Part shown: positions 1 to 33,286 of the stretch, piece by piece | Numbering within the stretch: the stretch's first letter is position 1 | Layout of the letters: every line of letters starts with the position of its first letter | Assembly: GCA_965203055.1 (NCBI GenBank) | Contig: OZ241863.1 | Coordinates: forward strand, 3,968,001-4,032,000 | DNA from: Spirochaetia bacterium | GTDB taxonomy: Bacteria; Spirochaetota; Spirochaetia; SZUA-6; Bin103 | Direction: 5' to 3' | Length of the DNA: 64,000 nt | Made by a program: the position numbers and the translations under genes | Notes under the pieces: model-generated | The model's database searches: none | Seen by the model: the letters and a program-made list of their open reading frames with translations, nothing else | Told to the model about the DNA's origin: nothing

Positions 1-2334
1 GAAGAAACTTTCACATTGGGGAGGGGTGGACCTGCGGGCAGCATTGTCCGTATTGAGCAGCTTTCGATACGACAAGCCGTCCGAGAGGCTTTTCCGGGGG
101 CGATTTTTCTGAGTAAGGCTCATGGATGGCGTGTCCAGGAATGGAGAAATACCGCGTTTGAGCGTACGATTCGCGTGACTAAGACTTCACCTTTTCGGGT
201 TCCAGAGCCTTACTTACGGACCTTTGTTAACTTCAGCTTGAATCGTGACAGTATTGTTGACGGTCACCTTCTATCGAGCGACAAGGGATTTCTTTCTGAG
301 TGTAACTTACAGATCACGGAGCGAGTCGAAGGATATAAGGAGGGTAACAAATGGTTCCTTTATAAGGATCTCCGCCAAAGTAAGCACGGGATGACTCCAA
401 AGACCCGTGATTTTCGTACTACTGGTGTTGTACTACGGGTGAACGAATCGTGGTTTAAGAAGGAAGTCAAGAGCTCGGTTGCAGACGCGCTTTTGGGCCT
501 CCTTCAGCGCGAGTACAGCATATCACCCGATGACGCAGCCTGTGTTGCGACGGACGTTTCAGAGATACGGCAAGGACGACGTCATTCGCTGACCGACGCG
601 ATCGTAATCTTCGACTCCACTCATGGAAGCTTGCGGTTGACCGAGTTAGTGTATGCCAAGTTCGAACATTTGTTGTATCTTCTCGCCCGGTCGACCGAAA
701 TGACAGCGCCTAACGAGCATCTTCTTTCGCCGGACATGGTCCGACGTATGAGAAATTGGTTCGATCGACTCAAGAAGATAGCAGATTCAGAACTGGCCGA
801 TCTCGGAACCACAGATGAGGCGGTACCGGAAGGCTGGCTGCACGTGTTTGAGGTAGGTAGCGTCGTAGCCTACAGGGATTCCAAGGACGTAGCAAGAGAC
901 ATCACGATCACCGGCCGTCAATTGATGCAGATGGATGATCGATTGCATTTAGTGTACACCTATCAGGGTAACGGGTTTATTGCTTCCATTCCTGCGGAGC
1001 GGATCGACGCTGTCGGTGACGACTGGAACATGGTCTATTGGAATCCCCAGACGGACGAATCCCGTGATTCGTTCGACGAATCTCCTTCACCTGCCGTTCA
1101 CGACAACCTCGGCCCGAGCCCTTACATCGTCGGAAATCCGATTGATCAGGAGAGGATGTTCTTTGGCCGCGCCTCAATCATGGACAATATCAAGCGACAG
1201 CTTGGAAGCAGTGACCACGCCAATGTAGTCCTTCTTGAAGGGAACCGGCGTACTGGTAAGACGTCGATCCTCCGGCAGTTAAGCAAGAAGGACGTACTTC
1301 CCGGTTGGGTGCCAGTATACTGTTCGCTTCAGAATGTCGATAGCATCGCCACTCGCGACGTATTCAGATTGCTGGTATTACGAATCGGTTGGACCCTCGC
1401 TGAAATCGGCATTGAAACCTGGATGCCCGACCTACCGCAGCGTCGCTCCGGTCAACCGTTCAAGTTGGCCTTCCGCTCCGCGGTCAGCCGCGCTATTGCA
1501 GGAGGTCATCCCTTCGAAACGTTGGAGCTTTATCTTTCGACTGCGATAGAGCAAGCTAAACCACGCCGACTCTTGCTGATGCTCGACGAATTCGACAAGC
1601 TACAGGAGGGTATTGACAGTGGGATCACGAGCCAACAGGTTCCCGAAAACATCCGCCACCTCTTGCAACACCAGCCAGGTCTTGGTGCAATCCTAACCGG
1701 GTCCCGCCGTCTGAAGAGGCTGCGTGAAGAATACTGGTCGGCGCTATTCGGTTTCGGTTATCGGATTGGTGTCAGCGCACTACCACGAGTGGAAGCCCAA
1801 CGACTTGTCACTGATCCGGTAGTCGGGAAGCTCAAGTATGACCCACGAGCCCGTGACCGCTTAGTAGAGCTATGCGCGTGTCACCCATTTCTCGTCCAGT
1901 CGCTCTGCAGCCGGGTGTTTGACCAAGCGGCGACCGGAGGAACCCGAGCGATCACCCTCGACATGGTCGAACATGCGGCAGTGGAGATGGTGCAGGACAA
2001 CGAACACTTCCACACGTTATGGGGCTACGCCGGGACCGAACGGCGCCGGCTCATCCTCTCGTTATGTGCATCGATGACGAATGGAACCTACGCCGTAAGC
2101 TTACACCAACTCAAGACCAAATTTCACGAGAATGGAATATCAAATTTTGGGGACGACGATCTTACCGACGACATTACCGAGCTCCGCGAACTGGAGATGC
2201 TCGACTTTGACGAATCTTCCAACGGAGGCACGTATCGATTGTCCGTACCTTTGATGGCTATGTGGATGGAAGCGAACGTCGGCTTCCACGACTTGCTGAC
2301 ACGAGTCTTACGGGGAAATGGTCCAAGTGAATAA
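1..2334 (+). CDS. 5'-truncated fusion: C-terminal part of a YprA/MrfA-like (DUF1998-type) helicase joined to a STAND/AAA+ P-loop ATPase
   Basis: Frame is open from base 1 (EETFTLG...). REAFPGAIF..., FRTTGVVL and IVIFDSTHGSLRLT resemble the helicase C-terminal/DUF1998 region. These are followed by SPYIVGNP..FFGR, Walker A LEGNRRTGKTS, Walker B LLLMLDEFD and a helical tail. GC is lower than the backbone. Confidence 0.65.
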   Translation, partial: EETFTLGRGGPAGSIVRIEQLSIRQAVREAFPGAIFLSKAHGWRVQEWRNTAFERTIRVTKTSPFRVPEPYLRTFVNFSLNRDSIVDGHLLSSDKGFLSECNLQITERVEGYKEGNKWFLYKDLRQSKHGMTPKTRDFRTTGVVLRVNESWFKKEVKSSVADALLGLLQREYSISPDDAACVATDVSEIRQGRRHSLTDAIVIFDSTHGSLRLTELVYAKFEHLLYLLARSTEMTAPNEHLLSPDMVRRMRNWFDRLKKIADSELADLGTTDEAVPEGWLHVFEVGSVVAYRDSKDVARDITITGRQLMQMDDRLHLVYTYQGNGFIASIPAERIDAVGDDWNMVYWNPQTDESRDSFDESPSPAVHDNLGPSPYIVGNPIDQERMFFGRASIMDNIKRQLGSSDHANVVLLEGNRRTGKTSILRQLSKKDVLPGWVPVYCSLQNVDSIATRDVFRLLVLRIGWTLAEIGIETWMPDLPQRRSGQPFKLAFRSAVSRAIAGGHPFETLELYLSTAIEQAKPRRLLLMLDEFDKLQEGIDSGITSQQVPENIRHLLQHQPGLGAILTGSRRLKRLREEYWSALFGFGYRIGVSALPRVEAQRLVTDPVVGKLKYDPRARDRLVELCACHPFLVQSLCSRVFDQAATGGTRAITLDMVEHAAVEMVQDNEHFHTLWGYAGTERRRLILSLCASMTNGTYAVSLHQLKTKFHENGISNFGDDDLTDDITELRELEMLDFDESSNGGTYRLSVPLMAMWMEANVGFHDLLTRVLRGNGPSE

Positions 2335-3928
2335 AACCAATCCATATCGAGTCATGGGACCTTCAATCCCGCTCATGCTGGGACGACGGCACCTCATGCG
2401 AGTAATCGATAAGCATTTGCAGAAGTCGGAACCGGATCACGTGTCGGTTGTGGGACCCGCGCATTTCGGGAAATCCGTCCTGTTGAGGCACGTGGCCACC
2501 TCCTATCGCGCGAAGCCAAGCGGCTATCTGACGACCGTGCACATCGATCTGCGGCACGGTATACCTACTTCGGACAAGGATTTCATGCGACGATTGGCAG
2601 ATGAAATCAAGACTCAGTTGCAGGAGTTCTATCCACAGATTGCGGAGCTGATAGATCTCGAAGATGAAGCCATACACGAAATTTTGGGGCTTGTGTTCGA
2701 AGATCTTGAAAGAAAAGGCCAGCGGCTACTTGTCGTGCTCGACGGTTTCGACTACGCACTTGCCGGTAGTGATTTGACACGCAATCTCTGGGACCAGCTC
2801 CGTACGTTGGCGCAAAGTGTCAGTCTTCGATTAGTCGCGGGAAGTCGCCTCCCGTTGCGGGAACTGTGCAAGAATGAGGATTCCAAGACCTCCGATTTCT
2901 GGGAAATATTCTATGATACACCACTCCGAGTAGCCGCTCTTGATGACGATGACATGGCGGCCTTTTTGCTGCCGTTATTCAACGAAGGCTGCGAATTCGA
3001 TACTTCGGCACGCAAGGAAATCATCAACTGGACGGGAGGTGCTCCGCTACTAGTCTGTGCTTTGCTGCAGACGCTGTGGGAGGACCACCGGGGTAGTCGG
3101 CTTTCCAAGCTGGAGATTGACCAGGCCGCGAAGTCTCAGTTGATCGAGCGGCGCCATCTTCTGGGCGCACTCTGGGATGATTGCGATGATAAGATAAAGG
3201 CTGACCTGAGCATACTGTGCGACCGTGACATACCCTTGACCGATCTGCCTGAGTGGCGACGCCGATCTGTGGAAGAACGAGGGTTCGGCCGCGTGTCGGG
3301 TAACCGTCTACGAAGTTCTTGCCGTCTCATGGAGCGCTATGCTCAAGCGCAGGCTCCGGCCATCGCCGACCTGACCCGTCTTCTGGGAACGGCTGTCGGC
3401 TTCGAGACTCACATTCGATCTCTGCTGGATCTCCGGCTTGCGCAGGTACCGATTGGAGCGGATGATGAACTCTGCGAATGTGTCAGAAACGCCATTCACG
3501 CCCTCGCGCCATGGCCGGGAGGCGCGCTTGTTTGGGTCAGAAGTATCGCCAACCGGGCGCTGAGGCTTGTCTGGGACGCTGAACTTCCACCTGACAGAAC
3601 GGTACCTTCAAGGTGGCGTAACGAGGCGCGTAACGCAGGTGTGAATTTTCCCGACCAGGATAAGCTGCCGCGCGAGTACGGCGCGCAGCTCAGCATCCTG
3701 CGGTTCGCGACAGGAACGCGACGTACGTCGCGTCAAGTCAGGTACATCACTAAGACGACTTTTTTGCTGCTGGATTACTTGCTTTCGGTTGGCGATTTCG
3801 GCCAACACCGAGACGGCTTCCCCGAGACAAAGGTCACCATCGGTTTCGCGACGGCCGTCGTACTTGCCGCCATTTCGCTTGTAGAGTGTTTAACCGATGA
3901 TCTCCAACGACCTGTGGGTAACGAATGA
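2318..3928 (+). CDS. STAND/AAA+ ATP-binding protein with uncharacterised C-terminal domain
   Basis: NPY..G...LGR leader, Walker A VVGPAHFGKS, Walker B-like LLVVLDGFD, WTGGAPLLV sensor motif. Overlaps the upstream gene by 17 bp. Confidence 0.75.
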   Translation: MVQVNKTNPYRVMGPSIPLMLGRRHLMRVIDKHLQKSEPDHVSVVGPAHFGKSVLLRHVATSYRAKPSGYLTTVHIDLRHGIPTSDKDFMRRLADEIKTQLQEFYPQIAELIDLEDEAIHEILGLVFEDLERKGQRLLVVLDGFDYALAGSDLTRNLWDQLRTLAQSVSLRLVAGSRLPLRELCKNEDSKTSDFWEIFYDTPLRVAALDDDDMAAFLLPLFNEGCEFDTSARKEIINWTGGAPLLVCALLQTLWEDHRGSRLSKLEIDQAAKSQLIERRHLLGALWDDCDDKIKADLSILCDRDIPLTDLPEWRRRSVEERGFGRVSGNRLRSSCRLMERYAQAQAPAIADLTRLLGTAVGFETHIRSLLDLRLAQVPIGADDELCECVRNAIHALAPWPGGALVWVRSIANRALRLVWDAELPPDRTVPSRWRNEARNAGVNFPDQDKLPREYGAQLSILRFATGTRRTSRQVRYITKTTFLLLDYLLSVGDFGQHRDGFPETKVTIGFATAVVLAAISLVECLTDDLQRPVGNE

Positions 3929-4791
3929 CGAAGCCGGCGCCGGACGGGTTGTGGATTGACGGGGCTGCCGCGGCCTATCCCGAGGGTCTGTACCGCTTCG
4001 CCGGCGTGGCGGACGGGGTGACCGGGTTCGCTGCCGCGAGCGCGGGCGCCGTGGCTCACTTTCGGCGCCATGGCTACTTGGTGATTCACCGCGCCTTTAC
4101 CGGGCAGGAAACGGCGCGCGCCCTGGACGAGATGCTGGAGCTGCTCGCCCGCCCGCAGCCGGCGTTCAGCGGCGTGCAGTTCGAGCACTCGGCGCCGCAG
4201 GGGAAGCTGGCGGCGCTGGCGCCGGAGCTGCGCCAGGACTACGTCCGCAAGTTCTTCAACTTCCTCGAGTTCGCGCCGCGCTTGAAGGCGCTGTCCGAGC
4301 ATCCCGAGTTGCTGGCCGTCGTCAGCCGCCTCATCGGCGCGGCGCCGGCGCTGTTTCAGGACATGGCCCTGCTCAAGCCGCCCCGCATCGGGCGCGAGAA
4401 GCCGTGGCATCAGGATCACGCCTACTTCGACCTGCCGCTGGATACGCCGGTGGTGGGGGTGTGGATCGCCCTCGACCGCGCCACCACCGACAACGGCTGC
4501 ATGACCATCATCCCCGGCTCCCACCGCCGCGGCCCGGTGGTCCACTTCCAGCGCCGCGACTGGCAGATCTGCGACCGTCACGTGGACAACCGCGGCGCCC
4601 TGGCGGTGCCGCTGGAGCCGGGCGGCTGCCTGCTGTTCTCCAGCCTGCTGCACCACGGCACGCCCACCAACACCGCCGCCCGGCGCCGCCGCGCCCTGCA
4701 GTTCCATTACGCGCCCGCGGGCGCGGCGCGCATCGGCAAGGAACAGCGCATGGCCGTCTTCGGCGCCGAAGGCAAGTCGGTCACCTGCTGA
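3925..4791 (+). CDS. Phytanoyl-CoA dioxygenase (PhyH) family Fe(II)/2OG oxygenase
   Basis: PWHQD, WIALD..T..NGC..IPGSH, LHHGT..N...RRRALQFHY motifs. Confidence 0.9.
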   Translation: MTKPAPDGLWIDGAAAAYPEGLYRFAGVADGVTGFAAASAGAVAHFRRHGYLVIHRAFTGQETARALDEMLELLARPQPAFSGVQFEHSAPQGKLAALAPELRQDYVRKFFNFLEFAPRLKALSEHPELLAVVSRLIGAAPALFQDMALLKPPRIGREKPWHQDHAYFDLPLDTPVVGVWIALDRATTDNGCMTIIPGSHRRGPVVHFQRRDWQICDRHVDNRGALAVPLEPGGCLLFSSLLHHGTPTNTAARRRRALQFHYAPAGAARIGKEQRMAVFGAEGKSVTC

Positions 4792-4932
4792 CTGCTCGCC
4801 GGCGCGGTCCGGGCGCCGGCGGTCCGGGGCGGGGGCGCGCGGGGCCGCAGTCGTGCCATACTCAGGACCCGCGGCGCGCGGCCGGCACGCCGCATTACGC
4901 ACCATAAGGCCGTTTGAGGAGGAACCAGCGCC

Positions 4933-6309
4933 ATGCTGCCGCACATCGACGATCTGAAAGTGGTACTGCTGCACGTCATCGACGACCGCGCCGCGCGCGG
5001 CTACGACGTAACCGGACTGCGCGAACGGGTGCAGGCAGTGACCTTCAGCTACGACGAGCTGGCCGCCCTGCACCGGGAGCTGGACGCGGCGCCGCGCCGC
5101 GCGGACTGGCCCTACGTGGAGCCGGAGGACCTGGAGGCGATCTGGGCCGAGTGTCCTGAGCTGCCGGAAGATCCGCTGCAGCAGGTCGACCCGGAGGCGG
5201 CCGGCGAGCGCGCGCAAGCCGGATTCCTGGGGTCGGTGTGCGGTTGCGTGTTGGGCAAGCCGGTGGAGGTGCGCACCACCATGGCGGCGCTGCGGCGCGC
5301 CGCCGAGGCCGCCGGCGAGTGGCCGCTGCAGGACTATCTGAGCGAGGGGCTGCTCGACGCCCTGGGCGACCGCCACCGGAGCTGGCGGGAGGCGGCGCGC
5401 GGCCGCATCCGCTTCGTCGCCCGCGACGACGACATCAACTACACCGTGCTGGGGATGCTGATCCTGGAGCAGTACGGCATCGGCTTCAGCCGCGCGGACG
5501 TGATGCGGATGTGGCTGGCCAACCTGCCGCTCGGCTACACGTTCGGCCCGGAACGGATGCTGCTGACGCGCACTTCGGCGGCGGGAATCGCCGCCCGGCT
5601 GCGCCGCGGCCGCGGGCTGGCGGGGATCGGGGATGACCCGGAGCCGGTACTGGCGAAGCTGGTGGCGAGCTGGAACCCGGGCGACGAACTGTGCGGCGCG
5701 CAGATCCGCGCCGACGCCTACGGGTACGCCTGCGCCGGGCGCCCGCGGCTGGCCGCGGCGCTCGCCTGGCGTGACGCCGGCTGGACTCACCGCGCCACCG
5801 GCGTCTACGCCGCCATGTTCACGGCCGCGGCCATCGCCGGGGCCTACGTCATCGACGATCCGCTGGAGCTGTGCCGCATGGCGCTGCGCTGCGTGCCGCG
5901 GCGCAGCCGCTTCCATGAGCGGGTCAGCGACTGCCTCGACCAGGTCGCGCAGGCCGCGGACTGGCACGACGGCTACCGCCGCATCCACGACCGCTACGGG
6001 TGTTACGGCCACTGTCAGGTCTATCAGGAGACCGGCACCCTCATCAACACGCTGCGCTTCGCCGACGGGGTGGAAGAGGGCATCTGCCTGCAGGTGAGCC
6101 AGGGCAACGACACCGACAGCTACGGCGCCACCGCCGGTTCCCTGTTGGGCGTATTGTACGGCCGCCCCCCGGAGCAGCGCTGGCTGGCGCCCTTCAACGA
6201 CGAGCTGCGCACCACCGTGGCCGGCCTCTACGAAGCCTCCCTGACCAAGGTGGCGCAACGGATGGGGCGGCTGCCGCGGCTGGCGGCCGCGCAACTCGCC
6301 GGGCGCTGA
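4933..6309 (+). CDS. ADP-ribosylglycohydrolase family protein
   Basis: GCVLGKPVE, RDDDINYT, GAQIRAD, GNDTDSYGATAGS motifs; GAGGAGG RBS. Confidence 0.88.
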   Translation: MLPHIDDLKVVLLHVIDDRAARGYDVTGLRERVQAVTFSYDELAALHRELDAAPRRADWPYVEPEDLEAIWAECPELPEDPLQQVDPEAAGERAQAGFLGSVCGCVLGKPVEVRTTMAALRRAAEAAGEWPLQDYLSEGLLDALGDRHRSWREAARGRIRFVARDDDINYTVLGMLILEQYGIGFSRADVMRMWLANLPLGYTFGPERMLLTRTSAAGIAARLRRGRGLAGIGDDPEPVLAKLVASWNPGDELCGAQIRADAYGYACAGRPRLAAALAWRDAGWTHRATGVYAAMFTAAAIAGAYVIDDPLELCRMALRCVPRRSRFHERVSDCLDQVAQAADWHDGYRRIHDRYGCYGHCQVYQETGTLINTLRFADGVEEGICLQVSQGNDTDSYGATAGSLLGVLYGRPPEQRWLAPFNDELRTTVAGLYEASLTKVAQRMGRLPRLAAAQLAGR

Positions 6310-6361
6310 AACGGCGCGACGGGGCGCGGCGGGCGCCTGCCGCGCCCACGCGGTAACGGAA

Positions 6362-7954
6362 ATGCGTTTCTTCAACACCGCCGGGCCGATGCAACCGGAC
6401 GCCCACTACTGCATCCCGCCGTTGAGCCGGCTGGACGAGGACGAGGTGCGCACCCTGATCCGGCAGCAGCGCTACTTCGTGCTGCACGCGCCGCGCCAGA
6501 CCGGCAAGACCTCCGCCCTGCTGGCGCTCACCGACGAACTGAACGTCGGCGGCGCCTACCGCTGCCTCTACGTCAACGTCGAGAGCGGCCAGTCCGCGCG
6601 CGAAGACGTCGGCGCCGCCATGCGCGCCATCCTCAACGAACTGGCCGGCGAGGCGCGCATCGTCCTGGACGACCCGTTCCCGGCGCAGATCTGGCCGGAG
6701 ACGCTGGAACGCGCCGGGCCGCACAACTGCCTGCGCGAAGTGCTGAGCCGCTGGGCGGCGGCCGACCGCAAACCGCTGGTGCTGCTGATCGACGAGATCG
6801 ACGCGCTGGTCGGCGACACCCTGATCGCGGCGCTGCGCCAACTGCACACCGGCTACGCGCGGCGCCCGCGGCACTTTCCGCAGAGCGTGATCCTGTGCGG
6901 GGTGCGCGACGTGCGCGACTACCGCATCCGTTCGAGCAGCGAAAACGCCGTGATCACCGGCGGCAGCGCCTTCAACGTCAAGGCCGAGTCGCTGCGGTTG
7001 GGGGATTTTTCAGCAACCGAGGTGCGCGCCTTGCTCGCCCAGTACACTGCGGAAGCCGGCCAGCCGTGGACCGACACCGCCCTGGAGACGGTGTGGGAGC
7101 TGACCGCCGGCCAGCCGTGGCTGGTGAACGCCCTGGCCCACGAGGCGTGCGACCGCGACGCGGCCGGCCGCGACCGCAGCCGCCCGCTCACCGCGGACGC
7201 CATCCACGCCGCCCGCGAGCAGCTCATCCTGCGCCGCGACACCCACCTGGACCAGCTTGCCGACAAGCTGCAGGAAGAGCGCGTGCACCGGGTGATCGCC
7301 CCGCTGCTGAGCGGACAGGCGACCACCGAGATGCGCCCGGACGACCTGCAGTACGTACGCGACCTGGGCCTCGCGGCCCGTGACGATCCGGTCCGCATCG
7401 CCAACCCGATCTACCGCGAGGTGATCCCGCGCGACCTGACCTGGACCACTCAGGCGGCCTTCACGCACGACCCGGCGTGGTACGTGGACGCCGCCGGCAA
7501 CCTGCGGCTCAGCGAGCTGCTGGCCGCGTTCCGGGAGTTCTTTCGCGAACACTCCGAGCACTGGATCGAGCGGTTTCAGTACCGCGAAGCCGGCCCGCAG
7601 TTGCTGTTGCAGGCGTTCCTGCAGCGCATCGTCAACAGCGGCGGGCGCATCGAACGCGAGTACGGCCTGGGCCGGATGCGCACCGACCTGCTGATCGTCT
7701 GGCCGGCCGCAGCGCCGCCCGGGCGCACCCGCCGGATGGTGATCGAGTGCAAGCTGCTGCACCGCAGCCTGGAGCGGACCATCCGCGAAGGGCTCGCCCA
7801 GACCCGCGCCTACCTGGACCGCTGCGGCGCCGGCGAGGGGCACCTGGTGATCTTCGACCGCAGCGCGGACAAGCCGTGGGAGCAGAACCTGTTCCGCCGC
7901 ACAGCACCCGCATCCGCCGCCGCCGGCCCGCCGATCACCGTGTGGGGTATGTAG
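6362..7954 (+). CDS. AAA+ ATPase with C-terminal PD-(D/E)xK-like nuclease domain
   Basis: MRFFNTAGP start, HAPRQTGKTS Walker A, LLIDEID Walker B, C-terminal REYGLGRMRTDL..VIECK. Confidence 0.85.
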   Translation: MRFFNTAGPMQPDAHYCIPPLSRLDEDEVRTLIRQQRYFVLHAPRQTGKTSALLALTDELNVGGAYRCLYVNVESGQSAREDVGAAMRAILNELAGEARIVLDDPFPAQIWPETLERAGPHNCLREVLSRWAAADRKPLVLLIDEIDALVGDTLIAALRQLHTGYARRPRHFPQSVILCGVRDVRDYRIRSSSENAVITGGSAFNVKAESLRLGDFSATEVRALLAQYTAEAGQPWTDTALETVWELTAGQPWLVNALAHEACDRDAAGRDRSRPLTADAIHAAREQLILRRDTHLDQLADKLQEERVHRVIAPLLSGQATTEMRPDDLQYVRDLGLAARDDPVRIANPIYREVIPRDLTWTTQAAFTHDPAWYVDAAGNLRLSELLAAFREFFREHSEHWIERFQYREAGPQLLLQAFLQRIVNSGGRIEREYGLGRMRTDLLIVWPAAAPPGRTRRMVIECKLLHRSLERTIREGLAQTRAYLDRCGAGEGHLVIFDRSADKPWEQNLFRRTAPASAAAGPPITVWGM

Positions 7955-8006
7955 GAGGGCGTTTGCTTGCCAACCCGGATTGCGGCAACTAAGGTGCAGT
8001 ACCGCG

Positions 8007-8963
8007 GTGCATGCTTACATAATCCGGCGCGTCCTGCTGCTCATTCCGACCTTCATCATCCTCACCATGCTGGTGTTCCTGTCGGTGCGGTTGATTCCCG
8101 GCAACGTGGTGGACGCCGTCATGGCGCGGCTGGAGTTCGACGTGCAGGACATCGACCGCGAGCAGGTGGAACGCATGCTCGGCCTGGACCGGCCGATCTA
8201 CGTGCAGTACGTGGACTGGATCGGCGGCATCGCGCTGCAAGGCACCTTGGGCGATTCGTTCATCGGCGCGTTCACGGTGGAGGAGCGGATCGCCGGCCGG
8301 CTGCAGGTGACGTTGGAGCTGGGCTTGGTGTCGATCATCATCGCGCTGCTGATTGCGCTGCCGGTTGGCATCTACTCGGCGGTGCGGCAGGACAGCATCG
8401 GCGATTACCTCGGCCGCTCGGTGGCGGTCCTGGGGCTGGCCACCCCCAACTTCTGGCTGGCGACCATCGTCCTGATCTACCCGGCGATCTGGTGGGCGTG
8501 GGCGCCGCCGACCACCATGGTGCCGTTCCTCGAGCATCCGTTGCGGAACATCTGGGTGTTCGTCATCCCCGGCCTGATTCTAGGGACCGCCATGTCCGCG
8601 TCGACCATGCGCATGACCCGTACCATGATGCTGGAGGTGCTGCGCCAGGACTACATCCGCACCGCCTGGTCGAAGGGGTTGCGCGAGCGCACCATCATCC
8701 TGCGCCACGTGATCCGCAACGCCCTCATTCCCGTGCTCACGCTGATCGGTCTGCAACTCCCGATCCTGATCAGCGGCGCGGTGATCATCGAGAATCTGTT
8801 CGCGCTGCCCGGACTGGGGCGGCTGGCGGTCAACGCCCTGATCGACCGTGATTATCCGGTCGTGTCCGGGGTCAACCTGATCTTCTCCACGGTGGTGATG
8901 GGGCTCAATCTGATGGTGGACGTGCTCTACTCGGTGCTCGATCCGCGGGTGCAGCACCGGTAG
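8007..8963 (+). CDS. Peptide/nickel ABC transporter permease (DppB-like)
   Basis: AYIIRR start (GTG), LATPNFWL, EAA-like QDYIRTAWSKGL, RDYPVV, LDPRV. Confidence 0.92.
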   Translation: MHAYIIRRVLLLIPTFIILTMLVFLSVRLIPGNVVDAVMARLEFDVQDIDREQVERMLGLDRPIYVQYVDWIGGIALQGTLGDSFIGAFTVEERIAGRLQVTLELGLVSIIIALLIALPVGIYSAVRQDSIGDYLGRSVAVLGLATPNFWLATIVLIYPAIWWAWAPPTTMVPFLEHPLRNIWVFVIPGLILGTAMSASTMRMTRTMMLEVLRQDYIRTAWSKGLRERTIILRHVIRNALIPVLTLIGLQLPILISGAVIIENLFALPGLGRLAVNALIDRDYPVVSGVNLIFSTVVMGLNLMVDVLYSVLDPRVQHR

Positions 8964-8978
8964 CCGGGGAGCCGGGAT

Positions 8979-9962
8979 TTGGCGGCAGCGCGGCCTCAGT
9001 ACGGCAACGGCAGGCGCAGCTTCACGCGCGACCTGCTCCGGCGCCTGTTTCGCGAGCGCCCGCTGGGCGCGTGGTGCGGCGTGGTGGTGCTCCTGCTGTG
9101 CTTCACCGCCGCGTTCGCGGGCCGGCTGGCGCCGTTTCCGTTCAGCGAGATCCACCTGATCGACCGGTTGTCGGGCTCGACTTCCACCTACCTGTTCGGT
9201 ACCGACCAGCTCGGCCGCGACCTGCTCAGCCGGCTCATGTACGGCGCCCGTCTGTCGCTCGGCGTGGGCATCTCGGCCACCGCGCTCAGTCTGGTGGTAT
9301 CGCTGCTGGTCGGCGGCGTCAGCGGCTTCGTGGGCGGCAAGCTGGACCTTGCGATCCAGCGCTTGGTCGACGCTTGGCTGTCGTTCCCCTCGCTCCTGCT
9401 GCTGCTGACCGTGCTGTCGATCCTGGGCCGCGGCGTCCCGCAGATCATCCTGGTCCTCGGCGTCTCGGCCGGCATCGGCAACTCGCGGGTAGTGCGCAGC
9501 GCCGTCATCGCCATCAAGGGCCACCCCTACTTCGAGGCGGCGCGGGCCATCGGCAGCTCGCAGGCGCGTACCCTGCTGCGCCACGTGTGGCCCAACATCA
9601 CCGCGCCCATCATCGTGATCTTCTCCATTACCGTCGGCGGCGTCATCATCTCGGAGGCATCGCTCAGCTTCCTCGGCTTCGGCCTGCCCCCGGACGTACC
9701 GAGCTGGGGCGCCATGTTGAGTCACGAGGGGCGCAAGTACATGGAGGTGTCGCCGCGCTTGGCGATGCTGCCGGGGTTGGCGCTGACCGTCGTCGTCTAC
9801 TGCCTCAACATGCTCGGCGACGCGCTGCGCGATCTGCTCGATCCGCGGCTGCGCGGCGCCGGCGGGGCGGCCAGCGGCGCCGGCAGCTACGGCGCGCGCG
9901 CCGCCCGCGACGTCACTCGCGCCCTGCAGCGCGCGGAGACGCGCGCCGGGAAGGCGGGTTAG
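8979..9962 (+). CDS. Peptide/nickel ABC transporter permease (DppC-like)
   Basis: FGTDQLGRDLLSRLMYGARLSL, YFEAARAIG, GDALRDLLDPR. Confidence 0.92.
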   Translation: MAAARPQYGNGRRSFTRDLLRRLFRERPLGAWCGVVVLLLCFTAAFAGRLAPFPFSEIHLIDRLSGSTSTYLFGTDQLGRDLLSRLMYGARLSLGVGISATALSLVVSLLVGGVSGFVGGKLDLAIQRLVDAWLSFPSLLLLLTVLSILGRGVPQIILVLGVSAGIGNSRVVRSAVIAIKGHPYFEAARAIGSSQARTLLRHVWPNITAPIIVIFSITVGGVIISEASLSFLGFGLPPDVPSWGAMLSHEGRKYMEVSPRLAMLPGLALTVVVYCLNMLGDALRDLLDPRLRGAGGAASGAGSYGARAARDVTRALQRAETRAGKAG

Positions 9963-11704
9963 CTTGGCGCTGCCGGGCGGCGCACCACGATCAGGGTGCC
10001 GGCGCGCAGGCCGGCCACCCGGCTCACGGCTCCGTCCGGCCACGTCACCGCCAGCTCCAGCGGCCGTTCGGCCGCGGGAAAGCCGAAGTGGGCGCGCGGC
10101 GGATCGCTCGACAGGTAGCCGCTGCTGACCCGCACGGCGCGCCAGTAGGCCGCCCGGTCGGTGGTGAGCCGGAGCCGCGCCCCGACCGCGAAGCGGTTGG
10201 CCGACCCGGCCCAGTCGAGGTCCACCTGCAAGCTGGCGCCGCCGCACACCTGATTCTCGAACAGCGCCGCCGGCGCCCGGAAGTTGTTGACCACCACGTC
10301 CAGGTCGCCGTCCAGATCCAGATCCGCCAGCGCCATGCCGCGCCCGCTCTCGGTGGCGCCCAGCTCCCACTCCGGCGCGGGCGTAAAGTTGCCGGCGCCG
10401 TCATTGCGTAGCGCCTGATTCTCCTCCACCAGTTCCGCGCCCGGCAGGTGGCCGAACGCCTCTCCGATCATGCCGTTCACGGTGTAGAGGTCAAGGTCGC
10501 CGTCGTTGTCGAGGTCGCCGAACTGCGCCGACCAGCTCCATCCGGTGGCCTCGACGCCGGCGCGCGCGGCGTGGTTCTCGAATGCTCCTCCCGCGCCCCG
10601 CACCTGCAGGGTGTTGGCGTAGATCTGGCCGCGGTCGGCGGCGGCGGCGTCCGGCGGCAGCACCGGCGCCCAGGCGGCGTCGACGTCAGGTCCTGACCGG
10701 TACGGCTTCATGTCGGCCGCGAACAGTTCGAAGCGGCCGTCGTTGTCGATGTCTCCCTCCGCGAACGCCATCGTGTTGTAGGTGGTCTGGCGGAACGGCG
10801 CGGCCGCCACCCAGCGGCGCGGCGTGTTGAGGTAGACGTAGTCCGGCACCTCGTAGTCGTTGCCGATCACGATGTCGCGGCGCCCGTCGCCGTCAAGGTC
10901 GGGCAGGGCTATGGCCAACGCCATCGCCCTGCCAGCCATGCGCACGTGCTCGAAGTAGAGGGTGGAAAACGGAAACCGGCTGCGCTCTCCGCCGGCCCCG
11001 AGATTGGCGTAGTAGAACACGCCGCGCAGCCGGGTCCTGGTGTTCGGGTCGGCGCCGGCGGCGCGGCTCAGGAACAGCTCGCGGCGCTCGATCTCATCCA
11101 GCTCCTCGTCGTAGGTGGCGCCCACCAGGTCCAGGTCGCCGTCGCCGTCCAGGTCCGCCCAGGCCATGGCGTGAATCGGAAAGCGGGCGGTGAAGCGGCC
11201 ATCCTCTACCCGGGTGAAGGTCCGGGCCGCGCCGCTCCCGCGCAGCCACCGCGGCTGCCCGTCGCGGCGGGTCACCGCCAGGTCCAGGTGGCCGTCGCCG
11301 TCCACGTCCACCGCGTTGATCGCGCGGGTCTGCTCCTCGGCCAGCGCCAACGGCGCGAACTCAAGGTCCCGGCCGCGGTTCCAGAGCACGGTCACCGGCG
11401 CGCGCAGCCCGGCCAGCGCGATGTCGATCCGGCCGTCGCCGTCAAGGTCGGCCAGCGCCACCCCGGCGCCGTTGCTGTCGAACGGCTTGGGCGGCCAGTT
11501 GCCGGTGGTGGTGTGGGGGAGCAGACGGCGCACGAAGCGTCCGGAACAGGCGCCGGCGTCGAGCTGGCGCAGTACGCGGGCGGCGGCGGGGACCGGCGCG
11601 GCCTCCGCCGCCTCGGCGCCAAGGCTGCCGCCGCCGGCCAGCAGCAACCCGCAGACCGCAAGCCCAAGCCGCCGCCGGCCCCGCGGGAGGTCACCCGGCC
11701 GCAA
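9959..11704 (-). CDS. CRTAC1-family protein (FG-GAP/VCBS repeats plus ASPIC/UnbV domain), secreted
   Basis: Multiple DxDGDG.LD repeats, GWSWSAQFGDLDNDG, C-terminal SSGYLSSD..RAHFG; hydrophobic signal segment. Start uncertain. Confidence 0.85.
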   Translation of the reverse strand: MRPGDLPRGRRRLGLAVCGLLLAGGGSLGAEAAEAAPVPAAARVLRQLDAGACSGRFVRRLLPHTTTGNWPPKPFDSNGAGVALADLDGDGRIDIALAGLRAPVTVLWNRGRDLEFAPLALAEEQTRAINAVDVDGDGHLDLAVTRRDGQPRWLRGSGAARTFTRVEDGRFTARFPIHAMAWADLDGDGDLDLVGATYDEELDEIERRELFLSRAAGADPNTRTRLRGVFYYANLGAGGERSRFPFSTLYFEHVRMAGRAMALAIALPDLDGDGRRDIVIGNDYEVPDYVYLNTPRRWVAAAPFRQTTYNTMAFAEGDIDNDGRFELFAADMKPYRSGPDVDAAWAPVLPPDAAAADRGQIYANTLQVRGAGGAFENHAARAGVEATGWSWSAQFGDLDNDGDLDLYTVNGMIGEAFGHLPGAELVEENQALRNDGAGNFTPAPEWELGATESGRGMALADLDLDGDLDVVVNNFRAPAALFENQVCGGASLQVDLDWAGSANRFAVGARLRLTTDRAAYWRAVRVSSGYLSSDPPRAHFGFPAAERPLELAVTWPDGAVSRVAGLRAGTLIVVRRPAAPS

Positions 11705-11724
11705 GCCGCCGGGTGACCTCCCGC
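11683..11724. repeat. Perfect 17-bp inverted repeat (hairpin) downstream of the solute-binding protein gene
   Basis: GCGGGAGGTCACCCGGC (11683-11699) / GCCGGGTGACCTCCCGC (11708-11724), 8-nt loop. Confidence 0.85.
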
Positions 11725-11761
11725 CGGATCAGGCCGCCGTCTGCAGTCTGAGCGGCGCGCT

Positions 11762-13600
11762 TCAGAATCCCATCTCCGCCTTCATGGCCTGGTCGATCCA
11801 GAGGCGGGCGAAGACCTGATTCTTCTGCCACACCCCCATGTAGAAGTCGCCGTTGAAGCCCCGGACCCACGGCTGGCTGAAGTTGAACGCCGGCGAGATC
11901 GGCCCCCAGGTGTACCAGTGCTGCCGGATCAGGTAGTAGTCGGCCTCCTTCGCCGCGGCCTTGAGGTCATCGAGCGTGCCCGCCTCCCGCGCCCGCTTGA
12001 CCAGATCGTTGTACGTCGGATCGTTGAACTGGCCGCGGTTCCACTTGGCTCCCGGCTCCTGCCACTGCAGCGAGTCGAGCGGGAAGTAGGGCGTGCCGGC
12101 GATGGCCGGCGACAAGCCGAAGAGCTGGCCGTTGTCGAGCCGGCTGACGAACTCGGCGCCGTCCACCGCATCGACCTCGACCTCGACCCCGATCGCCTTC
12201 CAGTACTCGATGGCAATCTGCTGGTAGTCGCCCAGCGGCGACGCGTTGGACCACTGCAGCGGAACCTTGAACCGGACGCCGTCGGCGCCGCGCGGGTAGC
12301 CGGCCTCGTCCAGCAATGCCTCCGCCGCGGCGGGGTCGTAGCCGTAGGCCTGCCGCAGGTCTTGCGGCCACTCTTCGTACGGCACCACGAACCCGGTCAA
12401 CGCCCGCCCGATCACTCCCTGCGGGGTGGTTTCCGCCTGTCCCTTGTACACGGTGGCGGCAATGGTTTCGTTGTCCAGGGCCATCTGCATGGCGCGGCGC
12501 ACGCGGACGTCATCGAACGGCTTGTCCTGCACGTACATGGCAAAGACCTGATTGGAACGGAAGTAGTACGAATTCGCCCGCAGCTCCGGATTGGTGCGCA
12601 ACAGGCTGTCGGCCTCGTCGATGGTGTCCAGCGAGGTGGACATGTTGTGCCCGATGTAGTCGACCCGGCCGGCGCGCAACGCCGCAATGTAGGTGGCCGT
12701 CTCCGGCATGATCAGAACCTTGAGTTCGTCGACGTAGGGGAGCTGATTGTCGGGATACTTCTCGTCGCGCCCCCAGTAGTCGGGGTTCTTGTGGAAGGTG
12801 AGCGACTCCGCCTCCACCCAGTCCACCAGCATGAACGGCCCGGTGCCGACCAACGTCCGCCAGTCGGTCACGTCGCCTTTCTCCCGGATCACCTCCGGCG
12901 GCAGGATGAAGCCGAAGTTGTCGTCGATGAGCACCTTCAACGCATCCAGCGGCGGGGTATCGATCTCGACGTAGACCTGATTGCCGCGCGCTTCCAGGAC
13001 CGTGAAGTCGAGCTGCGGGAACCGGCTCGAGTTGGGCGGCGGCTGCTCGAACGGGCCGGTGCCGCTCAACCGCTGGAAGTTGAACACGATGTCCTCGGCG
13101 GTCAGCGGGCGCCCGTTCATCGGCGCCTTGTCATGCCAGCGGGCGTTTTCGCGGACGGTGAAGATGAACGTGTTGGGGTTCGGCACCTCCCAGCTCTGCG
13201 CCAGCGCGCCGGCGTAGTGGCTGATGTCGAGATACTCGGTGGCCAGCGCGTTGACGCTGCGGTCGATGCCCCAGTTGCCGATGCCCAGCTTTTCGACGAC
13301 GCCCGAGTTGGCAAAGCCGGCGGACAGTCCGCCGATCGACTGGTCGGTGTTGGCGATTTCGCGGTCGTTGGCCGCGGTCAAGGTGCCGCCGTACTGCGGC
13401 GCCGGGACCTCCATGCCGGTGGTCGGGTCGGTCACCATCTCCCGCTCCATGGTATCCATGGCCGCGGCGCTGTCGTCTTCGCCGGTAGGCGCCGCCCACG
13501 CCGCGCCCGCGGCAAGCGCGAGGCCGGACAGCACCGCCAGCGCCGGCCGCCACCGGCGCGCGTACGACGACAGATAGCGAAGCGCAAGCGATTTTCTCAC
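11762..13600 (-). CDS. ABC transporter substrate-binding protein, family 5
   Basis: PQYGGTL, LAQSWE, VGTGPF, PFDDVRVRRAM, YDPAAAEALLDEAGY; GAAGGAG RBS before GTG. Confidence 0.92.
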   Translation of the reverse strand: MRKSLALRYLSSYARRWRPALAVLSGLALAAGAAWAAPTGEDDSAAAMDTMEREMVTDPTTGMEVPAPQYGGTLTAANDREIANTDQSIGGLSAGFANSGVVEKLGIGNWGIDRSVNALATEYLDISHYAGALAQSWEVPNPNTFIFTVRENARWHDKAPMNGRPLTAEDIVFNFQRLSGTGPFEQPPPNSSRFPQLDFTVLEARGNQVYVEIDTPPLDALKVLIDDNFGFILPPEVIREKGDVTDWRTLVGTGPFMLVDWVEAESLTFHKNPDYWGRDEKYPDNQLPYVDELKVLIMPETATYIAALRAGRVDYIGHNMSTSLDTIDEADSLLRTNPELRANSYYFRSNQVFAMYVQDKPFDDVRVRRAMQMALDNETIAATVYKGQAETTPQGVIGRALTGFVVPYEEWPQDLRQAYGYDPAAAEALLDEAGYPRGADGVRFKVPLQWSNASPLGDYQQIAIEYWKAIGVEVEVDAVDGAEFVSRLDNGQLFGLSPAIAGTPYFPLDSLQWQEPGAKWNRGQFNDPTYNDLVKRAREAGTLDDLKAAAKEADYYLIRQHWYTWGPISPAFNFSQPWVRGFNGDFYMGVWQKNQVFARLWIDQAMKAEMGF

Positions 13601-21740: not shown

Positions 21741-22646
21741 TCAGCCCTTCACCGAGCCGAGCATGATGCCCTTGACGAAGTAGCGCTGCAGGAACGGGTA
21801 CACCGCCACGATCGGGCCCATCGACACGAACAACAGCGCCGCCTTCAGCGGCTCGGGCGTGATCATCCATATCTCATCCTCCGGCAGAATCTCCATCTGC
21901 GTCGTGACCTGATTCTCCAGCAGCACGCGCCGCAGCAGGACCTGGAGCACCGTGAGCCGCTTCTCCGGCGTGAAGATCAGCGGAAAGAACCAGTCGTTCC
22001 AGTGCGCCACCGCGGCCCACAGCGCCACGGTCGCCACTACCGGCGCGGACAGCGGCACGATGATGCGGAACAGCACCTGCAGCAGGCTGGCGCCGTCGAT
22101 GGTAGCGCTCTCGGTCATCTCCGCGGGGATCTCGCGGAAGAAGTTGCGCATGATGATGACGTAGTAGGCGTTGGCGGCCAGGTGCAGCAGCCACGCCAGG
22201 CGCGTATCGAGCAGGCCGAGCTGCTTGTACCACAGGAAGGTAGGGATCAGCCCGCCGGAGAAGAACATCGTGAACACCATGAGGAAGGTGAGCGTCCTGA
22301 TGCCGGGCAGGGTGCGGTCGGCGAGCCCGAACGCCGCGGTGAAGCTGACCAGCAGGATCAGTGCGGTACCGAGCGTGCTCTTGAAGATGGAGTTGAAGTA
22401 GGCGGTGCCGAGCGCCGCGCCGGCGAATACCTTGGCGTAGTTGTCCAGGGTGAATTCGCGCGGCCACAGCTTGATCCGATCCTGCACCGAGGCAGGCGGC
22501 GTATTGAACGAGTCCACCAGCAGATACCAGAAGGGGTAGAGGATCGAGGCAGTGAACAGGATCATCGCCGCGCCGGTGAACAGGCGCAGGGCGGCGGCCT
22601 CGAAGCTCATCGGCCGCCCGGGCAGCGCGCGCGCCGGGATGCTCAC
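21741..22646 (-). CDS. Carbohydrate ABC transporter permease (LplC/MalG-like)
   Basis: TMFFSGGLIP, ESATIDGAS, AVAHWNDWF, YPFLQRYFVKGIMLGSVKG; GTGA overlap. Confidence 0.92.
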   Translation of the reverse strand: MSIPARALPGRPMSFEAAALRLFTGAAMILFTASILYPFWYLLVDSFNTPPASVQDRIKLWPREFTLDNYAKVFAGAALGTAYFNSIFKSTLGTALILLVSFTAAFGLADRTLPGIRTLTFLMVFTMFFSGGLIPTFLWYKQLGLLDTRLAWLLHLAANAYYVIIMRNFFREIPAEMTESATIDGASLLQVLFRIIVPLSAPVVATVALWAAVAHWNDWFFPLIFTPEKRLTVLQVLLRRVLLENQVTTQMEILPEDEIWMITPEPLKAALLFVSMGPIVAVYPFLQRYFVKGIMLGSVKG

Positions 22647-23650
22647 GTCAGCGTGTAGGCGCCGGCCTGGCCGAGGCGCTTGATGAACCAGTTGGCGCCC
22701 ACCAGGGCGGCCAGCCCGATCACGTTCTGGAACAGGCCGACCGCGGTGGCGAAGCTGTAGCGGAAGTCCTGCAGTCCGACGCGGTACACGTAGGTGCCGA
22801 TGATGTCGCCGACATCGTACACCAGGGGATGGTAGAGGTTGAAGATCTGGTCGAACCCCAGCTCCAGGATGTTGCCGAGTTGCAGCAGGAACATGATCAC
22901 GATCACGAAGGTGATCGCGGGCAGGGTGATGAAGCGCATCTGCTGGAGGCGGCCGGCGCCGTCGATCTGCGCCGACTCGTACAGCGCCGGATCGATGCCG
23001 CTGATGGCGGCCAGGTAGATGATCGACCCCCAGCCCACCCCCTTCCAGACGTCGCTGACCAGCACGATGGCCAGGAAGGTGCCGGGCCGCTGCAGGAACA
23101 GGATCGGCGTCTCCAGCCCGGCTGCCGCGGCCAGCAGGTTGAGCGGGCCGGTGCTGGCCGCCAGCGGACGGATCAGGCTGGCCACCACCACCCAGGAGAG
23201 GAAGTGCGGCAGGTAGCTGACGGTCTGCACCACGCGCTTGAAGCGCAGGTTGGCTACCTCGTTGAGCAGCAGGGCGAAGACGATGGGCATGAAGAAGGCG
23301 ATGCCCATGCGCAGCACGCCGTTGATGAACAGGGTGTTGCGCAGCACGCGGAAGAAGTCGGGCGACTGGAACAGGCGCTCGAAGAACTTCCAGCCGGCCC
23401 ACGGGCTGCCGAACAGGCCGCCGGTCACGGTGAACTGCTTCCAGGCCAGCACGATGCCCGCCATCGGCACGTAGCGGAACACCAGGAACAGCGCCAGCGC
23501 CGGGATCAGCAGCAGGTAGCGTTCCTTGTACTTGAGCAGGTTGGCCGCCCGCGGGCCGCAGGCCCGCGGGCGGCCCGCGGGCGCGGGCCGCCGCGGCGCC
23601 GCCTCGGGTACCGCCTGTCCGTGCCGCAACACCGCCGCCGAGTGTCGCAT
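22643..23650 (-). CDS. Carbohydrate ABC transporter permease (LplB-like)
   Basis: YVPMAGIVLAWK, VQTVSYLPHFLSWVV, LYESAQIDGA, ATAVGLFQ. Start uncertain. Confidence 0.9.
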   Translation of the reverse strand: MRHSAAVLRHGQAVPEAAPRRPAPAGRPRACGPRAANLLKYKERYLLLIPALALFLVFRYVPMAGIVLAWKQFTVTGGLFGSPWAGWKFFERLFQSPDFFRVLRNTLFINGVLRMGIAFFMPIVFALLLNEVANLRFKRVVQTVSYLPHFLSWVVVASLIRPLAASTGPLNLLAAAAGLETPILFLQRPGTFLAIVLVSDVWKGVGWGSIIYLAAISGIDPALYESAQIDGAGRLQQMRFITLPAITFVIVIMFLLQLGNILELGFDQIFNLYHPLVYDVGDIIGTYVYRVGLQDFRYSFATAVGLFQNVIGLAALVGANWFIKRLGQAGAYTLT

Positions 23651-23971: not shown

Positions 23972-24229
23972 TCAGGTCCCGTCGCCGCCTGCCGCGGCCG
24001 CGCCGTTGGGTTGGCTCTTGAGCTTCTGATACTCCTGCTCGTCGATCCCGGTCGCCCGCTCGATCATCGACCAGTCGACGCCGGCCCGCAGGAAACCGTC
24101 GATCGTCTCCAGACGGCCTTCGCGTTGGCCTTCGCTCCGGCCTTCGCGATGTCGCTGTTCGGCAACCGCTCGCATCTCGTCACGCATCTGGTCGCGCCCT
24201 TCCTGGCGCAGCCGCTCGCCGCTCGTCAT
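23972..24229 (-). CDS. Probable internally initiated short Rpn C-terminal protein (RpnS-like, 85 aa)
   Basis: In-frame ATG at 24229 preceded by AGGAGG (24237-24242) at 7-nt spacing. Confidence 0.6.
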   Translation of the reverse strand: MTSGERLRQEGRDQMRDEMRAVAEQRHREGRSEGQREGRLETIDGFLRAGVDWSMIERATGIDEQEYQKLKSQPNGAAAAGGDGT

Positions 24230-26215: not shown

Positions 26216-26217
26216 CG

Positions 26218-32423: not shown

Positions 32424-32494
32424 CGGTCATAGGTACCATAGATGGAGGGGCGGAGCGCGGCAAGCGTATTGCACGGCGCACGTTCGGCCAAGGG

Positions 32495-33280: not shown

Positions 33281-33286
33281 CTGCCG

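Follow-up and report, generated by a model that had tools for sequence, protein, structure and literature searches.

YprA-type helicases and STAND/ORC-like ATPases are among the most reused building blocks of prokaryotic immunity, and we have not found a joined form of them described. The subject here is such a form, a two-gene cassette at the left edge of a 64,000-nucleotide (nt) stretch of a Spirochaetia bacterium genome (assembly GCA_965203055.1, contig OZ241863.1, forward-strand positions 3,968,001 to 4,032,000; hereafter the window, in whose numbering positions are given unless a related locus is named). Its first open reading frame (ORF1) joins the tail of a YprA/MrfA-family helicase to an ATPase (ATPase1), and its second (ORF2) encodes another ATPase (ATPase2). 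On balance, the cassette appears to belong to a widespread and apparently unnamed family of restriction-like defence modules, of which it would be a rare variant with a helicase head.

MrfA/YprA (PDB 6ZNP/6ZNS) has the same order of RecA1, RecA2 and OB-CON-DUF1998 canopy, along with a Cys4 zinc cluster and an MrfB exonuclease partner. The cassette has neither of the latter and adds a beta-barrel, a 410-amino-acid (aa) C-terminal ATPase, an obligatory second ATPase and a foreign mobile context. According to the main text of the YprA census (10.1101/2025.09.15.676423), the Cys4 cluster characterises the YprA family and was lost in Dpd. DISARM likewise has a YprA-type helicase with a DUF1998-type canopy and is conceptually linked to the methylase-bearing relatives of the cassette. 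However, DrmB is a separate gene in DISARM, whereas here the canopy is fused, there are only two genes, and DISARM's PLD nuclease DrmC, SNF2 protein and methylase are missing; methylase and helicase are alternative heads in this ATPase family, not partners. The census also defines ARMADA, BRIGADE and TALON. As its main text has it, a YprA-family helicase is the defining component of these and of Druantia, all of them defence systems whose further partners vary; the helicases are far larger, contain many zinc motifs and bear C-terminal nucleases (10.1101/2025.09.15.676423). The C-terminus here is an ATPase, not a nuclease, and the ARMADA and Druantia partners BrxHII/PglX and DruH are absent from the window and from L001, a locus in another Spirochaetia genome that holds a second copy of the cassette. 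No helicase with a C-terminal AAA+/STAND ATPase is described in the main text of the census, where the terms 'ATPase' and 'AAA' occur 0 times; its supplements may list the clade.

The common, methylase-headed form of the family resembles BREX in combining an N6-methylase with target recognition and STAND/ORC-Cdc6-like ATPases without an obligatory nuclease, BrxB being an inactive STAND/ORC-like ATPase according to one BREX report, considered here in part (PMC12839542). In contrast to BREX, PglZ, BrxA and BrxL are absent, both ATPases keep their Walker motifs, and in the relatives a type-I-like methylase (M plus S) is covalently joined to ATPase1. Searches with PADLOC and Pfam of the window cassette, L001 and sampled neighbours gave no BREX gene except BrxHI on the helicase core. 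Avs/AVAST proteins share with the ATPases a P-loop NTPase, a NACHT-like Walker B, an NB-ARC-like fold and a modular occurrence in defence islands. Yet two different ATPases are paired here instead of a single tripartite protein, the fold is equally near to ORC/Cdc6, RFC and PAB2304, and, unlike in tripartite Avs/NLR-like STAND proteins, no TPR, WD40, LRR or effector domain was found in the ATPases. The relatives' heads match HsdM and HsdS models of type I restriction-modification (RM) systems, and HsdR is adjacent in 12 of 42 methylase-type loci, whereas the window cassette has no methylase, specificity domain or HsdR. As to Shango (SngA TerB + SngB + SngC), the search turned up no TerB gene, and neither ATPase matches SngB. 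In the literature searched, neither a YprA helicase fused to an AAA+/STAND ATPase nor an operon of methylase-ATPase1 and ATPase2 is described, and the parts used of the modularity preprint (10.1101/2025.09.30.679545) and the Avs preprint (10.64898/2026.01.04.697583) do not describe the architecture either. A preliminary description of the locus, made from sequence alone, had proposed a candidate new defence system; with regard to novelty this holds, as no named system matched in PADLOC, NCBIfam or the literature.

Helicase tail and fusion

ORF1 (1..2334, plus strand, 777 aa) is open at the 5' window edge. ORF2 (2318..3928, plus strand, 536 aa) overlaps it by 17 nt, and the ORF2 stop overlaps the ATG, at 3925, of a PhyH gene (Pfam E 2e-34). 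The parts of the cassette are:

1..705, plus strand: zinc-less OB-CON-DUF1998-like 'canopy' of the YprA/MrfA family (ORF1 aa 1-235; AlphaFold, Foldseek)
706..831, plus strand: helical connector (aa 236-277; model helices 244-255 and 262-268)
832..1068, plus strand: small beta-barrel, SH3/Tudor/KOW-like (aa 278-356; model strands 280-355)
1069..1104, plus strand: linker at the fusion junction, SFDESPSPAVHD (aa 357-368; predicted local distance difference test score, pLDDT, falls to 54)
1105..2334, plus strand: ATPase1, STAND/ORC-like P-loop module (aa 369-777; AAA_14, AAA_16, AAA_22)
1240-1266, plus strand: ATPase1 Walker A, GNRRTGKTS (aa 414-422)
1570-1596, plus strand: ATPase1 Walker B, LLLMLDEFD (aa 524-532)
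2318..3307, plus strand: ATPase2 NTPase and lid (ORF2 aa 1-330; Pfam, Foldseek)
2453-2476, plus strand: ATPase2 Walker A, GPAHFGKS (aa 46-53)
2732-2752, plus strand: ATPase2 Walker B, VVLDGFD, NACHT-like (aa 139-145)
3308..3928, plus strand: ATPase2 helical C-terminal domain (ORF2 aa 331-536; eight helices in the model)
3785-3808, plus strand: motif SVGDFGQH in the ATPase2 C-terminal domain (aa 490-497)

The preliminary description had recognised this layout. A single frame does join helicase tail, beta-rich domain, linker and ATPase, with all the strings it quoted present in ORF1 (REAFPGAIF at aa 28-36, IFDSTHGS at aa 203-210, DESPSPAVHD at aa 359-368), and the overlapping second ATPase does end in a C-terminal domain that remains unmatched. 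Both frames are intact over 2334 + 1611 nt, and chance can be ruled out for both ORFs because each protein has hundreds of relatives at E<1e-100.

The helicase core lies outside the window, as had been supposed. A cluster representative of 1282 aa (P0391) is 95% identical to ORF1 over all 777 window aa, and the window starts at its residue 503. Its first 500 residues contain GTASGKS, DESH, SAT and QRLGRVGR, so that motifs I, II, III and VI of a superfamily 2 (SF2) DExH core are seen by proxy, the cassette's own core being upstream of the window. The concern that the fusion might be unique to this assembly is dispelled by its recurrence in at least six independent clusters/loci at 67-95% identity. 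These include the full-length fusions P0393 (75%), P0241 (70%), P0396 (69%) and P0399 (67%) and the 1296-aa helicase-ATPase1 fusion of L001, a Spirochaetia metagenome-assembled genome (MAG), behind which an ATPase2 homologue lies; there are also two fragments, P0394 and P0395. Pfam finds DEAD and Helicase_C in both P0241 and L001.

An exhaustive phmmer search with the N-terminal part of ORF1 returned 221 relatives, 48 of them at E<=1e-30, in which the tail is the C-terminal third (~510-870) of DEAD + Helicase_C proteins of ~865 aa. In a quick tree of 65 tail sequences (8 fused, 52 stand-alone, 5 fragments), all fused sequences fall into one group of 11 (SH-like approximate likelihood-ratio test, SH-aLRT, 99) together with P0392, P0397 and P0398, 'stand-alone' helicases that end exactly in the linker. 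Since the fusion recurs across clusters and forms one tree group, sequence comparison indicates that it is genuine, that its age has allowed divergence down to 67% identity, and that it forms a minor branch of a larger clade of zinc-less helicases. As P0399 (fused), P0124 (an ATPase2 homologue) and P0436 (a stand-alone helicase of 874 aa) appear on one contig of 9.7 kb, stand-alone helicases may sometimes adjoin the cassette.

With regard to family, full-length relatives searched against solved structures match Bacillus subtilis YprA/MrfA (E 2e-32), followed by RecQ4 (6e-13). They score 200-226 bits over positions 7-694 of the 742 of NCBIfam TIGR03817 (YprA-like DECH helicase), whose equivalog cutoff is 874 (P0241: E 6e-59, 200 bits). 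Scores so far under the cutoff speak for homology with the family but not for membership in the equivalog. The PADLOC models SngC, BrxHI, DpdF, DruE and DrmA also match these proteins (E 1e-10 to 1e-33), in the RecA core only (~57-410). SngC is the best of them (E 2e-33, core residues 57-396 against model positions 24-372 of 720), the DrmA models reach E 1e-10 to 1e-12, and the DruE models cover only short core stretches. A PDB sequence search with ORF1 alone gave noise only, and a match of the tail to a Thermomicrobium plasmid (27% identity) was set aside because its neighbourhood was uninformative.

An AlphaFold2 model of ORF1 aa 1-370, built from 42 sequences, has a mean pLDDT of 92. Its significant PDB fold matches are limited to MrfA (6znp_A best, E 4e-12 over 278 columns; also 6zns and 6znq) and DrmB of DISARM (7s9v_B, E 3e-4). 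Conserved family motifs of the tail are E29, P32, G33, D205, G209 and L211-R212-L213. Pfam gave no match on aa 1-380 at E<=10, MZB (PF09369)/DUF1998 included, so that the DUF1998 call is based on evidence from fold and profiles; a distant relative (P0246) has an MZB match of E 0.005, below the cutoff. The Cys4 zinc cluster is absent from the tail, which has 2 Cys, neither conserved; close relatives have 0-3 Cys, and no column of the 42-sequence tail alignment holds more than 11. Thus the YprA/DUF1998-like label of the preliminary description is right at the level of fold and family, given the profile, sequence and MrfA/DrmB fold matches, but extends neither to the Cys4 cluster nor to a Pfam MZB/DUF1998 match. 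The beta-barrel, which also occurs in the stand-alone relatives of ~865 aa, has weak, local Foldseek matches to the 53BP1 Tudor domain (4x34_B, E 0.058) and the Spt5 KOW domain (4zn3_A, E 0.016).

The ATPase pair, its relatives and its mobility

Both ATPases are STAND/ORC-Cdc6-grade AAA+ proteins by Pfam and Foldseek, in line with the two STAND ATPases, one of them fused, of the preliminary description. ATPase1 matches AAA_14, AAA_16 and AAA_22 around their Pfam cutoffs. ATPase2 exceeds them for AAA_16 (37.4 bits, cutoff 32.6) and AAA_22 (30.2 bits, cutoff 27) and has sub-threshold matches to NACHT (20.8 bits, cutoff 26.7), NB-ARC (21.8 bits, cutoff 23.5), ATPase_2 and TniB. The ORF2 model (pLDDT 80.6) is placed at the ORC-Cdc6/STAND grade because its Foldseek matches, at E 1e-7 to 1e-5, are Cdc6 (1fnn), ORC2 (1w5t), PAB2304 (2qen), the NRC NB-ARC domain, RFC and TnsC. 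Neither family shows any variation in its Walker A and B residues (for ATPase1, in 36 sequences), and ORF2 is thus a STAND-grade P-loop NTPase with intact Walker A and B; its Walker B, of the form hhhhDGFD, we take to be NACHT-like. Sub-threshold PADLOC/NCBIfam matches to Specificity_I (2e-4), STAND_TPR (1e-3), mad8 (5e-3), DS8 (5e-4) and Orc1/Cdc6 (8e-5) were rejected as P-loop/coiled similarity.

The helical C-terminal domain of ATPase2 is a candidate output or sensor domain. In 38 sequences, C8, R46, R81, W92, E95, G165 and H170 (domain numbering) are invariant. The domain had no match in the ESM Atlas; Pfam gave DUF4145 for 1 of the 38 members (E 0.18) and DUF3047 for 2, and a PDB profile search reached a best E of 0.36, with 0 matches for the whole-protein profile. 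The motifs RSIAxRAL...LIWxAE and SVGDFGQH presumably resemble DUF4145 or HEPN-type helical domains, an unconfirmed lead.

A complex of ATPase1 (409 aa) and ATPase2 (536 aa) was predicted with 36-row alignments of each, since the mechanism proposed below has the two bind each other. The complex score was 0.81 (runs 0.81, 0.82, 0.81) and that of the best of 3 controls 0.00. Of 157 solved complexes, 116 come up to the mark for such scores, as do 2 of 215 mismatched pairs; these counts are only rough here, with our own alignments. Contact agreement among runs was at least 84% and partner pLDDT at least 82. The predicted contact is AAA+-style, side by side, with Walker A, Walker B, the N-terminal strand region and an invariant NEH (module aa 299-301) on the ATPase1 side and the invariant TSDFWEIFYDTP segment on the ATPase2 side. 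As a prediction, this supports binding of ATPase1 to ATPase2.

The relatives of the pair give the cassette its context. Among 219 matches, the 120 listed that are longer than 1360 aa all carry N6_Mtase and align to the ATPase1 half of ORF1 only (51-57% query coverage, 52-70% identity). In P0001, residues 1081-1480 are 70% identical to window aa 369-768 and are preceded by N6_Mtase and Methylase_S domains; the likeness to the methylase fusions begins at ORF1 aa 369. The preliminary description had suggested that such an ATPase pair usually follows large N6-methylases. The association is borne out, in 42 of 53 loci, but as P0001 carries both in one protein, ATPase1 is fused to the methylase and does not merely follow it. 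ATPase2 has 547 matches of ~530 aa, 56-97% identical among the 120 listed. The features by which the family can be known, an ATPase1 that starts LGxSPYIVGNP behind a DNA-engaging head and then, a few tens of nt on at most, an ATPase2 of ~530 aa with SVGDFGQH, are all present in the window.

The 53 loci, all from MAGs, were obtained by searching species-representative genomes with the ATPase2 alignment. A methylase head is present in 42 of them and a helicase head in 1 (L001); the other 10 are partial or solo ATPase2. The loci carry at least eight phylum-level labels, including Spirochaetia, Acidobacteriota, Gammaproteobacteria, Planctomycetota, Chloroflexota, Gemmatimonadota, Binatia and Latescibacterota. 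In 41 loci ATPase1 and ATPase2 occur as a pair, their aligned segments measuring 300 aa or more; the gap between them is 18-57 nt in 34 of these, and their identities to the window copies correlate (r = 0.92, n = 41). Some copies are decayed: in L014 (9197-11620) a single ORF of 807 aa joins the C-terminal half of ATPase1 to ATPase2, L016 (9424-11632) keeps only the last ~170 aa of ATPase1, and in L047, L051, L052 and L053 ATPase2 is frameshifted or truncated. L031, L035 and L036 encode a diverged ATPase2 (~43% identity) with no ATPase1 neighbour, beside small ORFs without a Pfam match or unrelated genes (AsmA, GATase).

In a quick IQ-TREE phylogeny of ATPase1 with every second of the 120 methylase sequences (60), the 8 helicase-fused sequences form one group (SH-aLRT 100), next to the methylase-fused P0001 (99). 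This fits a single exchange of heads on ATPase1, and the far greater diversity of the methylase forms favours, but does not prove, the direction from methylase to helicase. The 'effector swap' of the preliminary description is not what these data suggest: the exchange concerns the DNA-engaging head, and an effector was identified in neither form.

It is chiefly the surroundings of the methylase-headed relatives that argue for a place of the ATPase pair in immunity. The gene directly 5' of the methylase fusion has Sigma54_activat, AAA_lid_14 and HTH_8 domains by Pfam and matches PADLOC RtcR_PspF2 (CARF-AAA-HTH) end to end (E 9e-194). By direct search, an RtcR-like activator lies upstream on the same strand in 22 of the 42 methylase-type loci. 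The gene order in several loci is bacterial enhancer-binding protein, HsdR, HsdM, HsdS, fusion and ATPase2. On an Acinetobacter ursingii plasmid, overlapping genes for a WYL protein, a hypothetical protein and a type I R subunit precede the methylase fusion and ATPase2, annotated there as a 1323-aa 'N-6 DNA methylase' and a 520-aa 'ATP-binding protein'. RtcR-like CARF activators head defence superoperons that include type I RM, as described in part of a recent study (Bell et al. 2024, PMC11090510).

The evidence leans toward the window holding the 3' two-thirds of a two-gene cassette acquired by horizontal transfer. The cassette is compositionally foreign. Along the window, GC content is 0.49-0.56 to ~2750, 0.54-0.61 to 4000 and 0.70-0.75 thereafter, and GC at third codon positions (GC3) is 0.58 in ORF1 and 0.60 in ORF2 against 0.83-0.95 in most other long ORFs of the window. 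The GC step begins at the ATPase2 stop, and together with the overlap of ORF2 stop and PhyH ATG it agrees with the lower-GC block that had been described as ending at the phyH start. No tRNA gene was found in the window as an island edge.

In L001 the low-GC block spans 6001-10800. On both sides of the cassette there lies the 3' end of an ABC permease gene, duplicated in direct orientation (5710-5914 and 11611-11807); the duplication is made up of a 111-nt repeat that is 100% identical (5804-5914 and 11697-11807) and a 49-nt repeat at 84% identity. As this duplication encloses two genes with a ~190-nt leader, and its right-hand copy starts no more than ~15 nt from the ATPase2 stop, the cassette is a self-contained mobile unit of ~5.7 kb and two genes; no integrase was found inside it. 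The window has a homologue of the L001 permease at 25100-27213 (minus strand, 71-74% nt identity), with an OppC-like gene at 25100-26215. Since this homologue is not beside the window cassette, the two genomes carry the cassette at different sites. A YhgA-like Transposase_31 gene (23972-24976, minus strand) lies just past the 3' end of the OppC-like permease, perhaps a spot at which insertions recur. A possible sigma-54 promoter in the L001 leader, checked by eye, was rejected for its wrong spacing, and two minus-strand ORFs of 630-650 aa upstream of the L001 cassette are antisense artefacts over plus-strand permease genes.

Proposed defence function and its rivals

Under the defence reading, the invariant core of the family would be a pair of translationally coupled STAND/ORC-Cdc6-like ATPases, predicted to be heteromeric. 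The N-terminus of ATPase1 would always carry a DNA-engaging head, mostly a methylase with specificity domains and here a zinc-less YprA/MrfA helicase with a barrel. The helicase head may load on single-stranded or otherwise aberrant invader DNA, a sensor role suggested by analogy with the loading on single-stranded DNA of MrfA (Roske 2021, PMC7797055) and DrmAB (10.1101/2025.09.15.676423), both sources drawn on in part. Engagement would be signalled through the linker to the ATPase1-ATPase2 switch, whose nucleotide-dependent assembly on DNA might block invader replication or activate the helical domain of ATPase2 as an output. We infer defence function, trigger, signal path and output alike. 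It can be proposed further, more tentatively and at somewhat less than even odds for all parts jointly, that the ATPase pair is a portable immune 'chassis' with interchangeable DNA-engaging heads. With a methylase head it would act as an epigenetic, restriction-like system under RtcR/CARF-sigma54 control, and with a helicase head as a methylation-independent, self-contained 5.7-kb cassette that senses DNA structure; the output would be either a new effector, the helical domain of ATPase2, or an ORC-like replication blockade.

Several points weigh against defence. By Pfam and PADLOC, no other defence gene lies beside the cassette in L001, and the window does not reach the left end of its own copy, where the promoter and any regulator would lie. 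In neither cassette protein was a nuclease, a toxin or another known effector domain recognised, and neither ATPase has a significant model in PADLOC v2 or NCBIfam release 20, a null that for PADLOC counts here as well. The complex score may derive in part from likeness to solved AAA+ assemblies. The helicase-headed form makes up only 1 of the 53 representative-genome loci, stand-alone proteins of ~865 aa dominate the helicase clade (52 of 65 tree sequences), and the helicase is nearest to repair-type MrfA, not to DruE or DrmA.

A rival explanation is an MrfA- or 'YprA only'-type repair or replication-restart helicase with accessory loader-like ATPases and no role in immunity. Besides the best structure and sequence matches, which are to MrfA, and the many close relatives that stand alone, the lack of a nuclease in the cassette fits such a function, as does the census, whose main text puts helicases without a conserved context in the repair branch (10.1101/2025.09.15.676423). 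However, the ATPase pair is otherwise joined to RM-type methylases, beside HsdR, WYL and RtcR-like regulators, and the cassette is compositionally foreign, inserted as a unit and patchily distributed across phyla, so a pure repair function seems unlikely. Another rival is a module for the maintenance or replication of a mobile element, whether an ORC/Cdc6-like initiator pair on a helicase or an addiction module; the ATPases do have ORC/Cdc6-, RFC- and TnsC-like folds, and the mobile cassette has no integrase. Yet the L001 cassette holds only two genes and a ~190-nt leader, stable chromosomal copies exist in many complete MAG chromosomes, and the fusion of the pair to methylase and specificity domains in 42 of 53 loci is unfitting for replication initiation; we give this explanation about one chance in ten.

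Membership as a divergent form in a named YprA-helicase system (DISARM, ARMADA, Druantia, Dpd) or in Shango could be argued from the matches of the SngC, BrxHI, DpdF, DruE and DrmA models. But those matches end with the RecA core, the cassette has no PLD/Vsr nuclease, methylase, BrxHII-like, DruH or TerB partner, and ATPases go unmentioned in the main text of the census, which makes such membership very improbable. That the locus is an assembly chimera or a decaying, non-functional remnant is scarcely credible: although the window edge cuts the gene and decayed related copies exist (L014, L016, L047, L051, L052 and L053), the frame is intact, the fusion is found in at least six clusters/loci and the catalytic motifs are invariant.

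The cassette amounts to a natural experiment, with a helicase head in place of a methylase head on the same chassis, and can show the role of the chassis apart from methylation. The common form is linked to RtcR-like CARF regulators, which points to RNA-damage signals as its inducers. The widespread, unnamed ATPase pair in restriction-like operons itself merits study, and the two-gene coding unit of 5.4 kb is small enough for direct testing.

Neighbouring genes in the window and in related loci

Following the cassette, at host GC (3925-7954), are genes for PhyH, an ADP-ribosylglycohydrolase (E 3e-31) and a 530-aa AAA_22/AAA_35 ATPase, the last without a PADLOC or NCBIfam match. The first ~45 codons of the PhyH ORF precede the Pfam domain and could be non-coding flank. 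Near the relatives, L012 encodes at 26-4458, upstream of the RtcR-like gene, a 1086-aa SNF2 + PLD protein and a 377-aa AAA_16 ATPase. A ResIII/DEAD helicase of ~1500 aa with a sacsin-like N-terminus lies downstream of the methylase-type system in L010/L016 (12764-17471), and L016 also carries an AbiEii gene.

Farther along the window, a 423-aa AAA_14 + DUF4143 ATPase (36251-37522, plus strand) matches the PADLOC candidate system PDC-S01 over its full length (E 1e-126). A type III RM system occupies 50721-57265 (plus strand), with Mod of 1115 aa (MTase_III E 8e-188) and Res of 1203 aa (REase_III E 2e-144); the two ORF calls overlap by ~400 nt and their starts are uncertain. A second Mod-like gene of 969 aa is convergent with it (57231-60140, minus strand; MTase_III E 5e-212). 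A D12-class N6-adenine methylase (34069-35181; type II MTase E 1.5e-57) adjoins a minus-strand ORF of 635 aa (region 32427-35181) with a GC3 of 0.59 and no PADLOC match, which could be the cognate endonuclease or another foreign gene. Three further ORFs with very low GC3 against ~0.9 for the genome, at 47723-48694 (0.47), 50151-50555 (0.41) and 22002-22658 (0.59), are probably other foreign insertions.

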